Below are positions 14,761 to 29,015 of a stretch of DNA of 47,622 bases, one piece after another. The notes below the pieces were generated by a model. The model made no database searches, was not told the DNA's origin, and saw only the letters and a list, made by a program, of their open reading frames with translations. The translations under genes were made by a program, and so were the position numbers. Source of the stretch: Alphaproteobacteria bacterium (GTDB lineage Bacteria > Pseudomonadota > Alphaproteobacteria > RF32 > CAG-239); the NCBI GenBank assembly GCA_017960745.1, contig JAGCYN010000021.1, positions 1 to 47,622 on the forward strand, in the 5' to 3' direction. Position 1 is the first letter of the stretch, and every line of letters starts with the position of its first letter.

Positions 14761-15666
14761 TTAAGCCACCAATTCTTTCACTTTGGAAATTGCTTCATTG
14801 ATTTTGCTGACATCAACACCGCCGGCCTGAGCCATATCCGGTCTGCCGCCACCGCCTTTGCCGCCTAAAACTTCGGCAGCCGCACGCACAAAATCAACCG
14901 CGTTGTATTTATCGGTTAAATCCTGACTGACGCCGACAACCACTGATGCTTTATTATCTTTATCCGAGCATAAAACCACCACACCGGAACCGATATTTTG
15001 CATAATATCGTCCACAAACGATTTTAATTCTTTCGGATGTGTATCCGGCACCGTTTTACCGACAAACTTAACACCGTTCACAATTTCCGTTTCGTTTTGT
15101 GATTTTGCCTGACCGCCGGCCAAACTCTTTTTCAAATTAAAGATTTCGGCTTCAAGTTTCTTGCGTTCTTCCAACATGCCGTTGATACGATTTTCCATAT
15201 CGTTGATATTGGTTTTCAACATGGCGGAAACCTGATGCAGTTTATCTTCAATCGAGCGAACGTAACAATCGGCGCCGTAACCGGTAACACATTCCAAACG
15301 ACGGACACCGGCCGCCACGGCAGATTCCGAAACAATGTGGAAATAACCGATATTACCGGTTGAGCAAACGTGTGTACCGCCGCAAAGTTCGCGCGAGAAC
15401 GGCGCTTTTTCATCACCCATGGTCACCACGCGGACATCATCGCCGTATTTTTCATCAAACAGCGCCATCGCGCCGAGTTTTACCGCCTCATCTTTGTTCA
15501 TAATCACGGTATTTACCTTCAAATCACGGCAAATCTGCTCGTTGACAATATCTTCAACCTGTCGCAACTGCTCTGCCGTAACCTGTTTCGGATGCGAAAT
15601 ATCAAAGCGCATTCTGCCGGCTTCCACCGCCGAACCTTTTTGTGCCACATGATCGCCCAAAACCAT
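14761..15666 (-). CDS. alaS: Alanine--tRNA ligase, C-terminal fragment (editing-domain remainder + C-Ala/DHHA1)
   Basis: VLGDHVAQKGS...RFDISH, ELCGGTH and the GGKGGGRPDMAQAGG motifs of AlaRS. It is in frame with the upstream fragment, separated from it by one TAG and 6 sense codons. Confidence 0.85.
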   Translation of the reverse strand: MVLGDHVAQKGSAVEAGRMRFDISHPKQVTAEQLRQVEDIVNEQICRDLKVNTVIMNKDEAVKLGAMALFDEKYGDDVRVVTMGDEKAPFSRELCGGTHVCSTGNIGYFHIVSESAVAAGVRRLECVTGYGADCYVRSIEDKLHQVSAMLKTNINDMENRINGMLEERKKLEAEIFNLKKSLAGGQAKSQNETEIVNGVKFVGKTVPDTHPKELKSFVDDIMQNIGSGVVVLCSDKDNKASVVVGVSQDLTDKYNAVDFVRAAAEVLGGKGGGGRPDMAQAGGVDVSKINEAISKVKELVA

Positions 15667-15684
15667 TTTCAGAGCTTTATGAGC

Positions 15685-17391
15685 CTAGTGTGTTACCGAG
15701 TGGTTGGCACAAATACGACTACGATTGGTTTCATCAACTTCAAAATTGGCAAAAGCACCGACTTTAACCGTACCGTCTTCCAATTCGCAGACATGAACGA
15801 AAACATTGTCCAGCTTGCGTTTGCAATCCACCACTTTCGCCGTAAAATCTTTTGAGGTAATCACACCGATATCGCCGACCTGACCGCCGCATTCACCGTA
15901 AAACGGCGTTTGGTTGGCCACCAACTCGAATTTACCGCTTGTAACACTCGAAACTTCCTGACCGTTCTGAACCAACGCTTTGATTTCGCCGTCAGCTTTT
16001 AATGTGTTATAGCCGAGAAATTCCGTGGCGCCGCATTTATCCTGAATGCCGTACCAAACTTTTTCAACCCCGGCATCACCCGAACCGGCCCAGTTTTTAC
16101 GGGCTTCGGCTTTTTGTCTTTCCATGCAGGCATCAAAACCCTCAACATCAACCTCGATATCCTTGCTTTTCAAGGCATCTTGCGTTAAGTCAAGCGGAAA
16201 ACCGTAGGTATCATAAAGTTTGAACGCTGTTTCGCCGCTCAATTTGGAACCTTTCGGTAAATCAGCAATTTCTTCATCCAGCAGACGCATACCTTTATCC
16301 AGCGTGCGACCGAAACGCTCTTCTTCAATGGCAATGGTTTCTTTAATTAAATTTTCGCGGGCATAAAGTTCCGGATAAGCCTCGCCCATTTCCTTTTGCA
16401 ACACCGGCAACAACTTATAAATCATCGGATCTTTAACCCCGAGCAGATAAGCATGGCGCATCGCACGACGCATAATACGGCGCAAAACATAGCCACGGCC
16501 TTCATTAGACGGCAAAACCCCGTCGGCAATCAAAAAGCAAATGGCACGCAAGTGGTCGGCAATAACGTTATGAGAGGCTTTAAGCGGACCGTTTGGATCG
16601 GTATTTGCCAAATCGGCAATTGCTTTAATAATGTGCTGAAACATATCGGTTTCAAAGTTTGAGTGAACACCTTGCAAAATTGCCGCAATACGCTCCAAAC
16701 CCATGCCGGTATCAATAGACGGACGTTTTAAATTAATGCGCGAACCGTCAGGCAAGTCTTCAAACTGGTCAAACACCAAGTTCCAAATTTCAATGTATCG
16801 GTCACCGTCTTCTTCCGGCGTTCCCGGCAGACCGCCCCACACTTCCGGACCATGGTCATAAAAAATTTCCGAACACGGACCGCACGGACCGGTATCGCCC
16901 ATCTGCCAAAAATTGTCTTTTGTTGCAATACGGATAATTCTGTCTTCCGGCAATCCGGAAACTTTTTTCCAAATATTGTGAGCCTCGTCATCGTTATGAT
17001 AAATCGTTACCGCCAATTTTTCTTTCGGCAGACAAAATTCTTTGGTTAACAGTTCCCAAGCATACGGAATGGCATAATCTTTGAAATAATCGCCGAATGA
17101 AAAATTGCCGAGCATTTCAAAAAACGTATGGTGACGAACGTCATATCCGACGCTGTCCAAGTCGTTATGTTTACCGCCGGCGCGAACACTTTTTTGGGCG
17201 GTTGTCGCTCGCGTATAATCGCGTGTTTCATTTCCGGCAAGAATATTTTTAAACTGCACCATACCGGAATTTGTGAACATCAAAGTCGGATCATTATCCG
17301 GCACCAAAGACGAAGACGGAATAACTTTATGTCCGTTCTTGGCAAAATAATCCAAAAAAGTTTTACGAATTTCATTAACGCTGACAACCAT
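15685..17391 (-). CDS. alaS: Alanine--tRNA ligase, N-terminal fragment (catalytic + tRNA-recognition domains), ending at an in-frame TAG
   Basis: [36 protein letters not shown] and other class II AlaRS motifs. It ends ...NHSVTH-TAG, inside the conserved HxxxH of the editing domain. Confidence 0.9.
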
Positions 17392-21787: not shown

Positions 21788-21864
21788 CGGGGTGTAGCTC
21801 AGCCTGGTAGAGCGCTTGGTTTGGGACCAAGATGTCGCGTGTTCGAATCTCGTCGCCCCGACCA
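21788..21864 (+). tRNA. tRNA-Pro (anticodon TGG)
   Basis: Hand-folded: acceptor CGGGGTG/CGCCCCG, D arm GCTC-AGCCTGGTA-GAGC, anticodon arm CTTGG-TTTGGGA-CCAAG, T loop TTCGAAT, encoded CCA. One U52:U62 mismatch in the T stem. Confidence 0.85.
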
Positions 21865-22032: not shown

Positions 22033-22051
22033 AATCTCGTCGCCCCGACCA
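22033..22051 (+). repeat. att-like direct repeat of the 3' end of tRNA-Pro
   Basis: AATCTCGTCGCCCCGACCA at 22033-22051 is identical to 21846-21864 (T-loop end through CCA). The flanking bases differ. Confidence 0.85.
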
Positions 22052-26075: not shown

Positions 26076-26294
26076 TTAAGCACAAAACAAGATAAAAAAT
26101 ATTACAATCGTTATCAATATTAAAAAATAAATCAATGTCTGCCACAGAAGACGTTTTCCGAAACTTAAAGTTTTATTTTTATAAAAACGATTTATCAGCG
26201 GATTGCCCAAAATATAGGTTAATACAAATGATATAACGGCAAATATCCGAAAGTTATATCTTAATGTTTCTTTGTTTTTTAAATAAAACTCCAA
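26076..26294 (-). CDS. Small membrane protein (72 aa)
   Basis: Two predicted TM helices. Overlaps the upstream small ORF by 16 nt. No family recognised. Confidence 0.4.
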   Translation of the reverse strand: MEFYLKNKETLRYNFRIFAVISFVLTYILGNPLINRFYKNKTLSFGKRLLWQTLIYFLILITIVIFFILFCA

Positions 26295-26419
26295 ATCATC
26301 TCTTCAAAAGGAGTATTTTCCAGAAAAGCAAAGAACAAACCTATCGTTAGTGTAACGATTATAATCCAGTATATCCAAAATTTTGCGACATTAATCAATT
26401 TACTTCCGAACTTAGGCAT
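26279..26419 (-). CDS. Small membrane protein (46 aa)
   Basis: MPKFGSKLINVAKFWIYWIIIVTLTIGLFFAF with SD AAGGA 7 nt upstream. The longer form in the ORF track lacks an SD. Confidence 0.4.
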   Translation of the reverse strand: MPKFGSKLINVAKFWIYWIIIVTLTIGLFFAFLENTPFEEMIWSFI

Positions 26420-26438
26420 TTCAAATCCTTTCGTGCTC

Positions 26439-26951
26439 TTATCTTGATGACATATATTCATAAAACGAAACGCTGTAATCATCCGTATCCGGTGCATTTA
26501 GAGATGAGTACCCAAAATCTGCAACAGCAATACAATAAGCCAATATAAAAGCATATATTAACTTTCGGTATGGTACTAAAATATCGGATTGCCATACAAA
26601 AATCATCATTGCGTACGTTATGCATCGGAATAGTAACAGTAAACAAATGGAGAAAATTAGTTTCCAAATAAATGGTAACGTGAACGGAATAAGAAAAATT
26701 AACAATATTTCTATTTCAAACATAGCCCAAGCCAAGAAAATTATAATCGGCAATTTCCAAGTTAGAGTAATTTTTTTTATTTTCTGATTGTCTTTACCGA
26801 ACCAAATTTTCCAGATTAAATAAGGAACGATAAAACTTACATATAAAGCCGGAACAACATATAAAAGAATAGCGAAAAACAAAGGGAAAGGAATTGTTGA
26901 AATTAACAACAGAATGGTTTTGATGAGTTTTGATTTTTCTACTTTTGCCAT
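26439..26951 (-). CDS. Polytopic membrane protein (170 aa)
   Basis: About 5 TM helices. The start is set at MAKVEKSK because the longer ORF form (to 27032) would contain the terminator hairpin at 26990-27023. Confidence 0.5.
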   Translation of the reverse strand: MAKVEKSKLIKTILLLISTIPFPLFFAILLYVVPALYVSFIVPYLIWKIWFGKDNQKIKKITLTWKLPIIIFLAWAMFEIEILLIFLIPFTLPFIWKLIFSICLLLLFRCITYAMMIFVWQSDILVPYRKLIYAFILAYCIAVADFGYSSLNAPDTDDYSVSFYEYMSSR

Positions 26952-26989: not shown

Positions 26990-27023
26990 TATAATAAAAA
27001 GAGCCGAATGTCAATCGGCTCTT
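26990..27023 (-). terminator. Rho-independent terminator after the SAA-like / Cys-rich gene pair
   Basis: Perfect 9-bp stem AAGAGCCGA / TCGGCTCTT with a 7-nt loop, followed on the minus strand by TTTTTATTATATTTT. Confidence 0.7.
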
Positions 27024-27057
27024 GAGATTCATTTAAGCTGTAAGTTGTTTAAATTTA

Positions 27058-27444
27058 TTATTTTTCACAGCTTTTAGGATAAATCCAATCTTCACCGAGT
27101 TTATGACATTTATCCAATGTAAATTCCGTATCACATTCTCCAGTCTTTTTATTTAGCGGCAAGTTATTATTTAAGCAAATTTCGTTAAAAACTTCTTTAG
27201 CCACACAACCTGCTTGTTTATAACGACATTTTTTGAAAAGTTCTATTTGGTCATCTGTCAACTTAATGCAACCGTTAATTTTGTTCCAGGCTAAACAATC
27301 TTCACGGCAACGATTTTCGTTGTAATCCCAAACATTACCCTCATCCAAACAGCCATTTTGTTCTAAAAAAACAAAATACTTCCAACTACCAAATAACAGA
27401 ACTGCTAAAATGATACAAATTTTAATTACTTTTGAATAATGCAT
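27058..27444 (-). CDS. Small exported or membrane-anchored Cys-rich protein (128 aa, 10 Cys)
   Basis: N-terminal hydrophobic helix KVIKICIILAVLLFGSW followed by a Cys-rich domain. SD GGAG precedes the ATG, which lies 11 nt after the stop of the SAA-like gene. Confidence 0.6.
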   Translation of the reverse strand: MHYSKVIKICIILAVLLFGSWKYFVFLEQNGCLDEGNVWDYNENRCREDCLAWNKINGCIKLTDDQIELFKKCRYKQAGCVAKEVFNEICLNNNLPLNKKTGECDTEFTLDKCHKLGEDWIYPKSCEK

Positions 27445-27455
27445 AATATCTCCGC

Positions 27456-28286
27456 TTACCAATATTTCTTAGGAAAAGCCGGATTTTTATTGCGATAATC
27501 TGCACAAGCATCTTGTGCATTACGATATACTCCGGAATTTCCTCGTAATCGTCCTGTCGCATTTACACGCAAATCATAAAATCTATCTTTTTGGGCTTCA
27601 TCCTCATCTAATCCCTTATAGTACTGGTTCCAATAAAAGTCAAATTTTTCTTTTGCATCTCCCAAGGCCTTGGCAGTGTTATAACCATAAGGTCCTCGTG
27701 CTGCCGCATTGAAATTTGCTTTACAATGATGATAATCATCCAAATTTTTATAACCATGATTTTTCATTTTAAAATACTCGGATGCCATATCCATTGTACC
27801 CCCGACAATTTGATGAATTGGAGATTGTTGATTTGTTGTTTGCAATGTATCTACATTTTGATTACTCAAACCGCTTGTGTTGTTATTCTGAAAATAACTG
27901 CTTGGTTTGCCGACTAGGCTTTCGGTATTGACGGTATAATCGGAATTTGCAAAAGCTTGACCATTATTTGTACCATTACCAAATCCGCTGTTGTTCAACT
28001 GATTTGTAACGTTTTGAATATTTTGGCTTATGTTTGAAGTGCCGAAGCCGTAGTTATTTTCCGGCGAACCACCCCAAAAATTTGTGCCATACTGCGGGTA
28101 GTTTTCTTCCGCTATTCCTTGCTTGGCAAAAACTTCCGCCAGTTGATTTTCTCTGGCCAATCGCGCGCTTTGATATTCCAATTCATCACGTGTTGAAAAT
28201 CCGCTGTGGTCAACCCCATAACTGTCAACTCCGCCGTTGCCGGATTGATAGCCGGTTAATTTTTTGATTTCATCCCATATATCCAT
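27456..28286 (-). CDS. Protein with an N-terminal Q/N/G-rich low-complexity region and a C-terminal serum amyloid A (SAA)-like domain
   Basis: aa 163-276 align without gaps to vertebrate SAA: DDYHHCKANFNAAARGPYGYNTAKALGDAKE versus [31 protein letters not shown], and the C-terminus NPAFPKKYW versus RPAGLPEKY. Strong SD AAGAGGAGAA. Confidence 0.8.
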   Translation of the reverse strand: MDIWDEIKKLTGYQSGNGGVDSYGVDHSGFSTRDELEYQSARLARENQLAEVFAKQGIAEENYPQYGTNFWGGSPENNYGFGTSNISQNIQNVTNQLNNSGFGNGTNNGQAFANSDYTVNTESLVGKPSSYFQNNNTSGLSNQNVDTLQTTNQQSPIHQIVGGTMDMASEYFKMKNHGYKNLDDYHHCKANFNAAARGPYGYNTAKALGDAKEKFDFYWNQYYKGLDEDEAQKDRFYDLRVNATGRLRGNSGVYRNAQDACADYRNKNPAFPKKYW

Positions 28287-28385: not shown

Positions 28386-28847
28386 TTAGCCAAGCAAAAG
28401 CTTTTTAAATTCGCGATTATTTTGTTGTGCCAACTGTCTTAATTTGTTCTTTTTGTTATGTTCTACATAAGGAATTTGCATTTCTTTTACTTTATTTGCT
28501 AAATACCATTCAACAAAACTGTTTGCCGTCAGTTTGATACCGATTTGTAGCGCTTCCTTGTATTTTTCTTTTTGAATTTCCGCAAATTTCTTTCTGAATT
28601 GCGCATATTTTTTATCACGAACAACTGCGCCCCTATGCGCTTTCTCTCTGTGATGAGTTTTAATTACGGCATCCATCGTTGTTGCATGAAGCTTGCCCCA
28701 GTCTTCTCTTGCTTCTTTGAGCAATTCTACCGCCCAAGATAAAATCTGCTGTTGAAACTCCCTGTTTTGATGTAAATATTCGTTATGCAAACACATTGCA
28801 TTGAATTGGCGCAACGCCTTAAAAGGTATAATTTCTTTGTAATCCAT
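28386..28847 (-). CDS. Hypothetical helical protein (153 aa)
   Basis: ORF with SD AAAGGAG upstream of MDYKEIIPF. No family recognised. Confidence 0.5.
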   Translation of the reverse strand: MDYKEIIPFKALRQFNAMCLHNEYLHQNREFQQQILSWAVELLKEAREDWGKLHATTMDAVIKTHHREKAHRGAVVRDKKYAQFRKKFAEIQKEKYKEALQIGIKLTANSFVEWYLANKVKEMQIPYVEHNKKNKLRQLAQQNNREFKKLLLG

Positions 28848-29015
28848 CTTTGCTCCTTTCAAAATAAGAAATATATTATATAATTAGGAAGCAAAATTCC
28901 AAAACACAAGTGTCATGCTAGCTTAGACAATAAAATCTGCGACGTTGTGTGAAAATTTTTGAATCGGTTTGCAATTTTACTTCAGTGCTTTTATGTTTGA
29001 AAACAAGAGGTAGTT

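Follow-up and report, generated by a model that had tools for sequence, protein, structure and literature searches.

The window analysed here comprises positions 1 to 47,622 of contig JAGCYN010000021.1 (assembly GCA_017960745.1), from an uncultured alphaproteobacterium of the order RF32, and the subject of this report is a pair of adjacent minus-strand genes within it. The first encodes a 276-residue effector that ends in a serum amyloid A (SAA)-type domain, and the second a 128-residue cysteine-rich membrane protein, hereafter the partner. It is concluded, with a probability of roughly 0.8, that this locus is a toxin–immunity cassette of a polymorphic toxin system. Moreover, comparison of the encoded sequences makes it very likely that the cassette serves interbacterial competition, with the effector as the source of toxicity and the partner as the source of protection.

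Organization of the cassette

The effector gene (28286..27456, minus strand; 276 aa, with the SAA domain at its C-terminus) is preceded by a strong Shine–Dalgarno sequence, AAGAGGAGA, located 7 nt 5' of the ATG. Its TAA stop codon is followed by 11 nt (gcggagatatt, which includes GGAG) and then directly by the ATG of the partner gene (27444..27058, minus strand; 128 aa), the candidate cognate immunity gene. An intrinsic terminator (27023..26990, minus strand) closes the cassette. It consists of a hairpin with a 9-bp stem (5 G-C pairs, 7-nt loop) at 27023-26999 and a T run that extends to ∼ 26990, and it is the top terminator-like site of the region. The fold has a predicted energy of −15.4 kcal/mol (z = −3.3), and only 1 of 200 shuffled sequences folded more strongly. 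The ribosome-binding site of the SAA-like open reading frame (ORF), the 11-nt spacing with a GGAG of its own before the 128-aa ORF and the strong terminator had all been described in the initial annotation of this DNA, and each was recovered here.

Directly upstream of the effector gene lies a gene for a helical protein of 153 aa (28847..28386, minus strand), at the position given for it in the initial annotation. A promoter-like site, TTGGAA-16-TATAAT (28902..28875, minus strand), is found 5' of this gene; 10 of its 12 hexamer positions match, and shuffled sequences yield such sites equally often. Since a site scan of the region revealed neither a terminator-like site nor a good promoter-like site between the 153-aa gene and the effector gene, and a promoter-like site lies upstream of the former, the transcription unit probably comprises three genes: the 153-aa gene, the effector gene and the partner gene. 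The two-gene operon proposed earlier therefore stands as regards the tight gene pair and its terminator, but the predicted unit is probably one gene longer.

The effector ends in a domain of the serum amyloid A family

Residues 152-276 of the effector, together with the stop codon (27456..27833, minus strand), were identified by Pfam, profile and fold comparisons as an SAA-type toxin domain of the prok-SAA family, Lipocone superfamily. Pfam PF00277 (SAA) matched residues 157-257 at 56.5 bits (cut-off 30.8; E = 3.9e-15), a search of the PDB with the family profile returned vertebrate SAA chains at E = 7e-19, and Foldseek aligned the model with SAA1 and SAA3 at template-modelling (TM) scores of 0.79-0.81 and a probability of 1.00. 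The gene had initially been called SAA-like, and the Pfam score and the structural similarity confirm that assignment. No Pfam match other than SAA was seen in the effector at E values up to 0.1, and colicin chains appeared only at Foldseek E >3. The AlphaFold2 (AF2) model of the domain has a predicted local distance difference test score (pLDDT) of >90, with helices at residues 156-177, 183-195, 199-222 and 228-251 and a short fifth helix at 257-266. In the model the domain is thus compact and soluble, a bundle of four helices plus a short fifth one, as expected of a prok-SAA protein.

SAA has been placed in the Lipocone superfamily, which also contains Wnt, TelC, VanZ and the phosphatidylserine synthases (Burroughs, Nicastro, Aravind, eLife 2025; PMC12419801). 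The same study inferred that the SAA-Wnt clade has a His/Glu/Asp active site together with an sNxxGR motif, and predicted action on phosphate-linked lipid head groups by analogy with TelC (lipid II) and PTDSS1/2. It also predicted, by computational means, that prok-SAA domains are the toxin tips of polymorphic toxins. The prok-SAA domain of MBP5215000.1, an entry in the source data of PMC12419801, differs from the present domain by one residue.

A 35-sequence alignment shows full conservation of H187 (helix 2), of D216 (where helix 3 ends), of the helix 4 residues D234 and D238 and of G245, whereas E213 (helix 3) and N242 are nearly invariant. C188 and C261 are also invariant among these homologues, and neither is present in vertebrate SAA. 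Residues 241-246, VNATGR, fit the sNxxGR motif. The mapping of these residues onto the active-site positions of PMC12419801 is our own reading; on that mapping, the conserved residues of the toxin domain appear to match the His/Glu/Asp scheme predicted for the Lipocone superfamily. SAA-domain matches are found in 109 of 201 genomes of the order, often as several copies with partners.

The cysteine-rich partner follows the SAA domain

The partner has an N-terminal membrane helix and 11 cysteine residues, one of them within the helix and 10 in the ectodomain. An exported-type protein with 10 cysteines and an N-terminal hydrophobic helix had been noted previously, and indeed all 10 ectodomain cysteines (C32, C46, C50, C59, C73, C80, C90, C104, C113 and C126) are invariant in 29 partner homologues. 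The AF2 model (pLDDT 91.5) comprises a helix at residues 2-34, strands at 38-40, 45-47, 50-54 and 58-61, and helices at 64-73 and 83-92, after which the chain continues as a cysteine-rich coil. The layout is therefore that of a four-strand, four-cysteine core followed by a six-cysteine C-terminal extension (residues 62-128). Because K5 and K8 precede the membrane helix and no cleavage motif follows it, the natural topology of the partner would be that of a signal-anchored protein with its ectodomain in the periplasm. No structural relative was found in the PDB at E <=0.001, and the matches to FilE_C and FilE were weak, fell below threshold and covered the four-cysteine core only.

The type iii immunity protein Imm-SAA is described as a transmembrane-anchored protein with an α-helix, four strands and four absolutely conserved cysteines, and every Lipocone immunity protein listed in that study is a transmembrane protein or a lipoprotein (PMC12419801). 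Residues 1-61 of the partner model fit this published account, a likeness by description and not by alignment. The conserved motif of a partner homologue (from locus L007) was not found in the text-searchable supplements of PMC12419801, which are without Imm-SAA sequences.

A word-indexed search for the partner returned only 33 clusters. In three independent assemblies a partner homologue of 127-128 aa begins 8-12 nt after the stop codon of an SAA effector, and the effectors concerned are 51-61% identical to the present one. Partner copies that are 66-75% identical, with all ectodomain cysteines retained, follow SAA effectors in L006, L007/L008 and L009. Across the order, partner-like sequences occur in 130 of 201 genomes. 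Of the partner matches listed, 68 are strong and 82 weaker; 34 of the former and 30 of the latter are on the same strand as a listed SAA match, 2-478 nt downstream of it. The weaker ones are ORFs of 76-105 aa that align only to residues ∼ 10-70 of the partner and that also stand behind SAA genes. These adjacency counts rest on listed matches, so they are lower bounds, and related genomes among the 201 are non-independent samples. Co-occurrence of the two genes across genomes, which the initial annotation had proposed as a check, was thus borne out by at least 64 adjacent pairs, spread over about 60 of the 201 genomes.

Twenty strong partner matches without an adjacent SAA match were inspected individually. 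In seven cases an SAA remnant or a divergent SAA domain lies upstream; the other 13 are orphan copies, which in some instances follow another toxin pair and in others malQ or atpC. At L023, L024 and L026, divergent partners (36-45% identical) directly follow malQ or atpC with no toxin nearby; they are either immunity genes that stand as orphans at fixed positions, or a paralogue with a housekeeping role.

Proteins that share the N-terminal module of the effector (see below) and carry other C-terminal domains are followed by other genes. Tlde1-bearing proteins precede a gene for a protein of 114-116 aa, a GH108 tip is followed by a convergent 148-aa gene, a tip of unknown type by a convergent 212-aa gene and a divergent SAA domain by a 70-aa gene. 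The directly downstream, putative immunity gene thus varies with the toxin domain, as it does in polymorphic toxin systems. The distribution of the partner conforms, as far as sequence can tell, to the usual picture of immunity genes. Both the adjacency of the pair and the change of downstream gene with the C-terminal domain support the effector–immunity arrangement that had originally been suggested.

An N-terminal module is shared by unrelated toxin domains

Residues 1-102 of the effector (27981..28286, minus strand) form a lineage-specific N-terminal module, or 'handle', that is common to proteins with other C-termini. It is joined to the SAA domain by an N/Q/G/S/T-rich linker (residues 103-151; 27834..27980, minus strand) that is modelled as disordered (AF2 pLDDT 32-42) and that contains the breakpoint at which C-termini are swapped. 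Residues 8-102 are modelled with pLDDT values of 80-89 and include helices at 32-55, 75-80 and 86-99. The fold matches that Foldseek found in the PDB all fell within the SAA part, neither Pfam nor NCBIfam recognized a domain in the module, and the effector has no signal peptide. The module is marked by the motif GY..D.YGV.H..F...DE..YQ..R..RE ... YPQYG.NFWG...NNYGFG. Its homologues share the start MDIWDEIKKLTGYQSGNGGVDSYGVDHSGFSTRDELEYQSARLARENQ...NYGFGTSNI..., continue with a low-complexity N/Q/G stretch and then diverge into unrelated C-termini.

A homologue search of 5.8 billion proteins returned matches of two classes, namely SAA-domain proteins and proteins that match at the N-terminus only. 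The latter are 80-99% identical across the first 35-60% of the effector, so that ∼ 108-135 residues recur at up to 99% identity, and they carry Tlde1 (PF10908), YkuD, GH108 with PG_binding_3 or no known domain. One example is protein P0060, which shows 99% identity across the first 39% of the effector (∼ 108 residues) and has a Tlde1 domain in place of SAA. The switch is equally sharp in DNA. When compared by blastn with the sister Tlde1 cassette L036, the present sequence is 88% identical from 28910 to 27962, a segment that runs through the promoter and the 153-aa gene into the effector gene, of which it takes in 108 codons. Similarity stops within the linker at 27962 (codon 108), beyond which the sequences are unrelated; the flanks also differ.

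Among the 120 best homologues of the effector, 112 contain the N-terminal module. A C-terminal part of >=80 aa is present in 79 of these 112, and these parts fall into at least 11 unrelated clusters that include 26 SAA-like, 12 unknown-type, 11 Tlde1 and 10 GH108 proteins. When 60 diverse handle proteins were examined with Pfam, all recognizable tips other than SAA itself were cell-wall enzymes: GH108 (n = 11), a VgrG3-like C-terminal domain (n = 3), YkuD, Tlde1, pesticin, SLT, GH46 and phage lysozyme. No nuclease, deaminase or NADase tip was seen in this set. A conserved N-terminal part combined with many unrelated C-terminal toxin domains is what is expected of a polymorphic toxin system. 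So are orphan or 'beheaded' cassettes, which are represented here by truncated SAA genes with an intact partner (L015, L016 and L027). A start-displaced SAA protein of 161 aa (P0009) was also found, and the genome of origin contains a stub of the module at the very end of contig C10 (G000:C10:1-102).

In a search of 1.84 billion representative proteins the module yielded 233 clusters, and all proteins listed carry it at the N-terminus or within ∼ 65 residues of it. It occurs in 79 of the 201 genomes and in 6 of the 22 genera of the order; the maximum, 18 matches or handle copies per genome, is reached in genomes of ∼ 1.5 Mb.

Some further features of handle proteins were observed. The genome of origin encodes a second effector of 270 aa (G000:C79:5022-7417) with a shortened N-terminal motif and a C-terminus like that of P0045; behind it stand four tandem paralogous genes for ∼ 115-aa proteins with three transmembrane segments, and the same paralogue array is found at L010:6950-8143. 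Of 79 handle-bearing proteins, 53 end in Trp or Tyr (often K-K-Y-W or P-K-G-W) and 20 in Lys or Arg. The Trp/Tyr ending spans unrelated toxin domains, and the SAA tail resembles the vertebrate C-terminus; in the non-SAA handle proteins the ending might be a shared C-terminal signal. Finally, SAA tips from other genera of the family, including L029 (G111:C4), L021 (G070:C25), L020 and P0081, are joined to a different conserved N-terminal module (..LPESEIR...KEPEW..). The lineage therefore has at least two alternative handles.

The accessory gene accompanies the N-terminal module

The 153-aa gene is kept directly upstream of effectors with the N-terminal module whatever the toxin domain. The encoded protein is 85% identical to one upstream of a Tlde1 effector (L010) and 56% identical to those upstream of SAA effectors (L007 and L013). 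The gene is present in 69 of the 201 genomes, namely in genera g1, g2, g7, g8, g10 and g13 and in two genomes of g3, a genus pattern that nearly equals that of the module. At least 30 listed copies lie a median of 120 nt upstream of a listed module. No match beyond noise was found for the protein in Pfam, NCBIfam, PHROG, PADLOC or PDB profile searches, and its homologues (the best 120 of 200) are all unannotated and nearly all ∼ 153 aa in length. The protein is a candidate adaptor, chaperone or regulator.

The motif of the N-terminal module is absent from the text of PMC12419801 and from its text-searchable supplements, and neither the module nor its 153-aa accessory gene is described in the literature that was searched.

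Secretion background of the lineage

TssC (PF05943), a sheath gene of type VI secretion systems (T6SS), was detected in none of the 201 genomes of the order, the genome of origin included, and the Escherichia coli positive control was matched. PAAR, VgrG and MIX-type domains were not found. Given the lack of TssC in the genome of origin and its 200 relatives, delivery by a T6SS was rejected.

A type IV secretion system (T4SS) is widespread in the order. VirB4 is present in 197 of the 201 genomes, as a single match in all but one genome, and VirD4 and a VirB10 domain (within an ORF of ∼ 1400 aa) were identified in all five genus members tested, the genome of origin among them. The T4SS locus encodes a VirB2 pilin and VirB4, followed by large proteins without a Pfam match. 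Loci of this system were observed on G000:C101, C129 and C64 and at L035 (G095:C30), with C101 also encoding a secretin and a PilB-like ATPase; the divergent core system occurs in gut genomes of 1.2-2.0 Mb. A literature search returned no paper on the T4SS of this lineage. It is tentatively suggested that the effector is exported by the single core T4SS of the lineage, with the handle and the 153-aa protein as the recognition unit. This route is given a better chance than release as a diffusible bacteriocin (see below), and the rest of the probability falls to some other mechanism. More doubtful is the wider proposal that the N-terminal module and the 153-aa gene make up an undescribed effector-recognition system that feeds cell-wall toxins into this vertically inherited, divergent machine. 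If true, this would represent a bacterium-killing T4SS distinct from the Xanthomonadales type, with an N-terminal signal and an adaptor in place of the C-terminal XVIPCD.

Other routes and associations were also considered. Genes for TpsB (ShlB/POTRA_2) lie directly upstream of the 153-aa gene and effector at L010:1740-3503 and G144:C15:2836-3603. TpsB was found in 22 of the 201 genomes, was not found in the genome of origin and is absent from the handle-rich genera, and two-partner secretion was rejected as a general route because TpsB is too rare. An association with phages or phage tail-like particles was likewise rejected: tail-fibre-like neighbours were seen in L006, but the other loci are not phage-like and no PHROG match to the cassette proteins was obtained. 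An anti-phage defence system was rejected because there was no PADLOC match.

Genes flanking the cassette

The region downstream of the terminator (26076-26951) had been described as encoding three membrane proteins. Membrane proteins are indeed encoded there, but two of the three are halves of one frameshifted gene. Nearest to the cassette is the gene for a polytopic membrane protein of 170 aa (26439..26951, minus strand), which has no family match in Pfam, NCBIfam, PHROG or PADLOC. It is 89% identical to the product of L010:8817-9329, which sits within an array of immunity genes behind a Tlde1 effector, and is probably an orphan immunity gene that is not specific for SAA. The next gene (26076..26422, minus strand) would encode a 114-aa membrane protein and is split into ORFs of 47 aa (26279-26422) and 72 aa (26076-26294) that lie in different frames with an overlap of 16 nt. 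Both halves find their counterpart, at 72% and 96%, in L013:2668-3012 and L014:2578-2922, where the gene is one intact ORF. This is either a frameshifted orphan gene of the immunity type or an assembly error. Such membrane proteins recur in immunity-gene arrays behind other toxins and are not specific to SAA cassettes.

At L007:2309-4671, 2-4 kb upstream of the SAA cassette of that locus, two genes encode pesticin-domain proteins of 221 aa, and each of them is paired with a convergent gene of 144 aa. These appear to be further toxin–immunity pairs that lack the handle.

Elsewhere in the window, a tRNA-Pro gene is found at 21788-21864, and 19 nt of its 3' end recur exactly at 22033-22051. The G+C content from ∼ 22 to 29 kb is 31-37%, compared with 41-49% in the flanks; the toxin cassette lies within this low-GC stretch, as do genes for a carboxylesterase and a member of the choloylglycine-hydrolase family. 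Alanyl-tRNA synthetase (14761-17391, minus strand) is encoded as two ORFs 18 nt apart, one of 568 aa (tRNA-synt_2c) and one of 301 aa (tRNA_SAD and DHHA1).

Discussion

Comparison with known systems

The core of the initial annotation, an SAA effector with a periplasmic cysteine-rich immunity partner, is correct and has already been published as a computational prediction (PMC12419801). The present pair shares with the prok-SAA/Imm-SAA pairs of that study both the toxin family and the principle that an immunity protein, encoded downstream and anchored in the membrane, acts in the periplasm. It goes beyond the published description of Imm-SAA in that the partner has a C-terminal half with six more invariant cysteines, and in that a 153-aa gene precedes the effector. 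The contexts tabulated for prok-SAA are 'T6SS, MuF, TM+Imm-SAA' (PMC12419801), whereas here there is no T6SS in the order and the tip is carried on an N-terminal module that the searched text and supplements do not mention.

TelC of Streptococcus intermedius is the sole Lipocone toxin that has been characterized experimentally; its action is confined to the outside of the cytoplasm, where it attacks a lipid-linked precursor of the cell wall, and the immunity protein that blocks it lies on the outer face of the membrane (PMC12419801). TelC and its immunity protein TipC share with the present system membership of the Lipocone superfamily, the proposed extracytoplasmic action and a membrane-bound immunity protein on the outer face. 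However, TelC belongs to the prok-TelC family, is exported by a Gram-positive type VII secretion system and has an LXG N-terminal domain, and the fold of TipC is unrelated. No sequence similarity of the present pair to TelC or TipC was seen. Small helical partners are likewise encoded upstream of LXG toxins.

Colicin M (immunity protein Cmi) and pesticin (Pim) combine a C-terminal enzyme with an N-terminal region by way of a flexible segment, and both their target and their immunity protein are periplasmic; the target is lipid II for colicin M and peptidoglycan for pesticin. The present toxin is, like these, a small three-part protein, and pesticin-type domains are found both among the cargoes of its handle and in cassettes nearby. 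Unlike colicin M, it has no match to a colicin M or translocation domain, its N-terminal module is modelled as folded and an accessory gene stands upstream.

The bacteria-killing T4SS effectors of the Xanthomonadales (X-Tfe) have a C-terminal, VirD4-binding XVIPCD domain, and their immunity proteins are the periplasmic lipoproteins X-Tfi (PMC6536674). The X-Tfe/X-Tfi pairs resemble the present system in the lack of a signal peptide, in cell-wall cargoes, in periplasmic immunity and in the presence of a chromosomal T4SS with VirD4. They differ in that the conserved module of the present effector is N-terminal, the toxin domain itself forming the C-terminus. Moreover, the lineage has a highly divergent T4SS, with most components lacking a Pfam match and the VirB10 domain lying in an ORF of ∼ 1400 aa. 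Finally, Tlde1-type domains such as that of the Salmonella pair Tlde1/Tldi1 are sister cargoes on the same handle and follow the same effector–immunity logic, but the Salmonella effector is delivered by a T6SS.

Alternative explanations

The same gene pair might encode a diffusible bacteriocin of the colicin M or pesticin type, in which the N-terminal module and linker would serve receptor binding and import by Ton or Tol, and no contact-dependent secretion would be needed. The size and layout of the effector are like those of the colicin M class, and the immunity protein is membrane-anchored and periplasmic in both cases. Pesticin is among the handle cargoes, and pesticin genes with convergent small genes are found 2-4 kb upstream of the cassette in L007. 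All recognizable cargoes act in the periplasm, no T6SS is present and the linker is disordered and N/Q/G-rich. Against this, residues 8-102 are modelled as folded (pLDDT 80-89) and not as an unstructured translocation domain, no convincing TonB box (inspected by eye) or TolB box was found, and no colicin or pyocin domain was matched. A conserved upstream accessory gene is typical of secretion-system effectors, and up to 18 handle copies in a genome of 1.5 Mb would be unusual for bacteriocins. This explanation is therefore considered unlikely.

That the partner is a helper of the SAA protein (a periplasmic chaperone, a receptor or an export factor) is very improbable. The greater conservation of the partner family (66-75%) than of the full-length effectors (51-61%) and the occurrence of divergent partners without an adjoining toxin would fit such a role; however, since the effector lacks a signal peptide, it would not normally meet the periplasmic partner in the producing cell. 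The partner also tracks the toxin domain and not the handle, being kept by the beheaded SAA cassettes of L015 and L016 and missing with other tips. Tandem duplicated partners (G046) and orphan copies are typical of immunity genes, and the architecture matches the Imm-SAA class, which is assigned to immunity in PMC12419801. The initial annotation had further proposed a membrane-active or amyloidogenic SAA protein, and killing by such a non-enzymatic mode, by analogy with vertebrate SAA, is improbable, even though vertebrate SAA binds lipids and forms fibrils (PDB fibril entries were among the matches) and catalysis is a prediction for every member of the SAA family. The predicted catalytic residues are kept: the polar residues of the putative active site are invariant or nearly so in 35 diverged homologues, which an amphipathic or amyloid mechanism would not require. 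The sister cargoes are all cell-wall enzymes, and the model is a compact, soluble four-helix bundle. Enzymatic attack in the periplasm of the target is thus more likely than a pore-forming or amyloid mode, for which no support was found. Host mimicry, in which a bacterial copy of vertebrate SAA would manipulate host immunity from a 'host-like' island with a MIF-like tautomerase and an esterase, has the low G+C content of 22-29 kb beside a tRNA-Pro with duplicated 3' end in its favour, and is nevertheless far-fetched. SAA-domain genes are found in 109 of the 201 genomes of the order, often in multiple copies with partners; SAA is one interchangeable tip among cell-wall enzymes and has a dedicated bacterial immunity gene; and the published phylogeny has animals acquiring SAA from bacteria, not the reverse (PMC12419801).

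Several points also weigh against the preferred reading of the locus as a toxin–immunity cassette of a polymorphic system with a secreted effector. About half of the listed partner-family matches have no adjoining listed SAA domain, and some divergent partners stand alone behind housekeeping genes such as malQ and atpC, so that the family may also have non-immunity members, or many orphan copies. The cassette has no adjoining secretion-system gene and no known trafficking domain. Since almost all genomes of the order have a T4SS, whether or not they carry the handle, finding one is not discriminating. Toxicity, substrate and neutralization are, for prok-SAA and Imm-SAA proteins in general, all inferred, and the source genome is a metagenome-assembled genome that is 88% complete and in 133 contigs.

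A model for the cassette

Taken as a toxin–immunity cassette, the locus would be one unit of a polymorphic toxin system with which uncultured Alphaproteobacteria of the gut and rumen act against other bacteria. The effector consists of a handle of ∼ 100 residues, presumably for trafficking, a disordered linker that serves as the recombination point and an SAA toxin tip. Without a signal peptide, it must leave the producing cell by a dedicated route, and the 153-aa protein, encoded in the conserved 'head' of the cassette, most probably helps in the recognition or export of the handle. The toxin would then reach the periplasm of a neighbouring Gram-negative cell. Action in the target periplasm is judged likely, and it is supported by the observation that all recognizable handle cargoes are cell-wall enzymes, by the partner model with its signal-anchor helix and 10-cysteine ectodomain, and by the two invariant cysteines of the toxin domain that are missing from vertebrate SAA. 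There the toxin may cleave the phosphate-linked head group of a lipid precursor such as lipid II; by analogy with TelC, the chance that it is a phosphoesterase acting on a lipid-linked envelope precursor of the lipid II type is put a little short of even. The partner, anchored in the inner membrane with its disulfide-rich ectodomain in the periplasm, would bind the toxin that sister cells deliver and so block it.

Implications

Vertebrate SAA is a major acute-phase protein whose biochemical activity is disputed; for its bacterial relatives, an enzymatic attack on lipid-linked precursors of the cell wall has been predicted. The present cassette offers a compact test bed for this prediction, consisting of a toxin domain of 125 residues with an intact predicted active site and an antidote of 128 residues, both with confident models and many natural variants. 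The cassette is also part of what is apparently the main interbacterial weapon set of an abundant, uncultured gut lineage with small genomes and no T6SS. The export route of this weapon set, once found, would extend the list of known delivery mechanisms.

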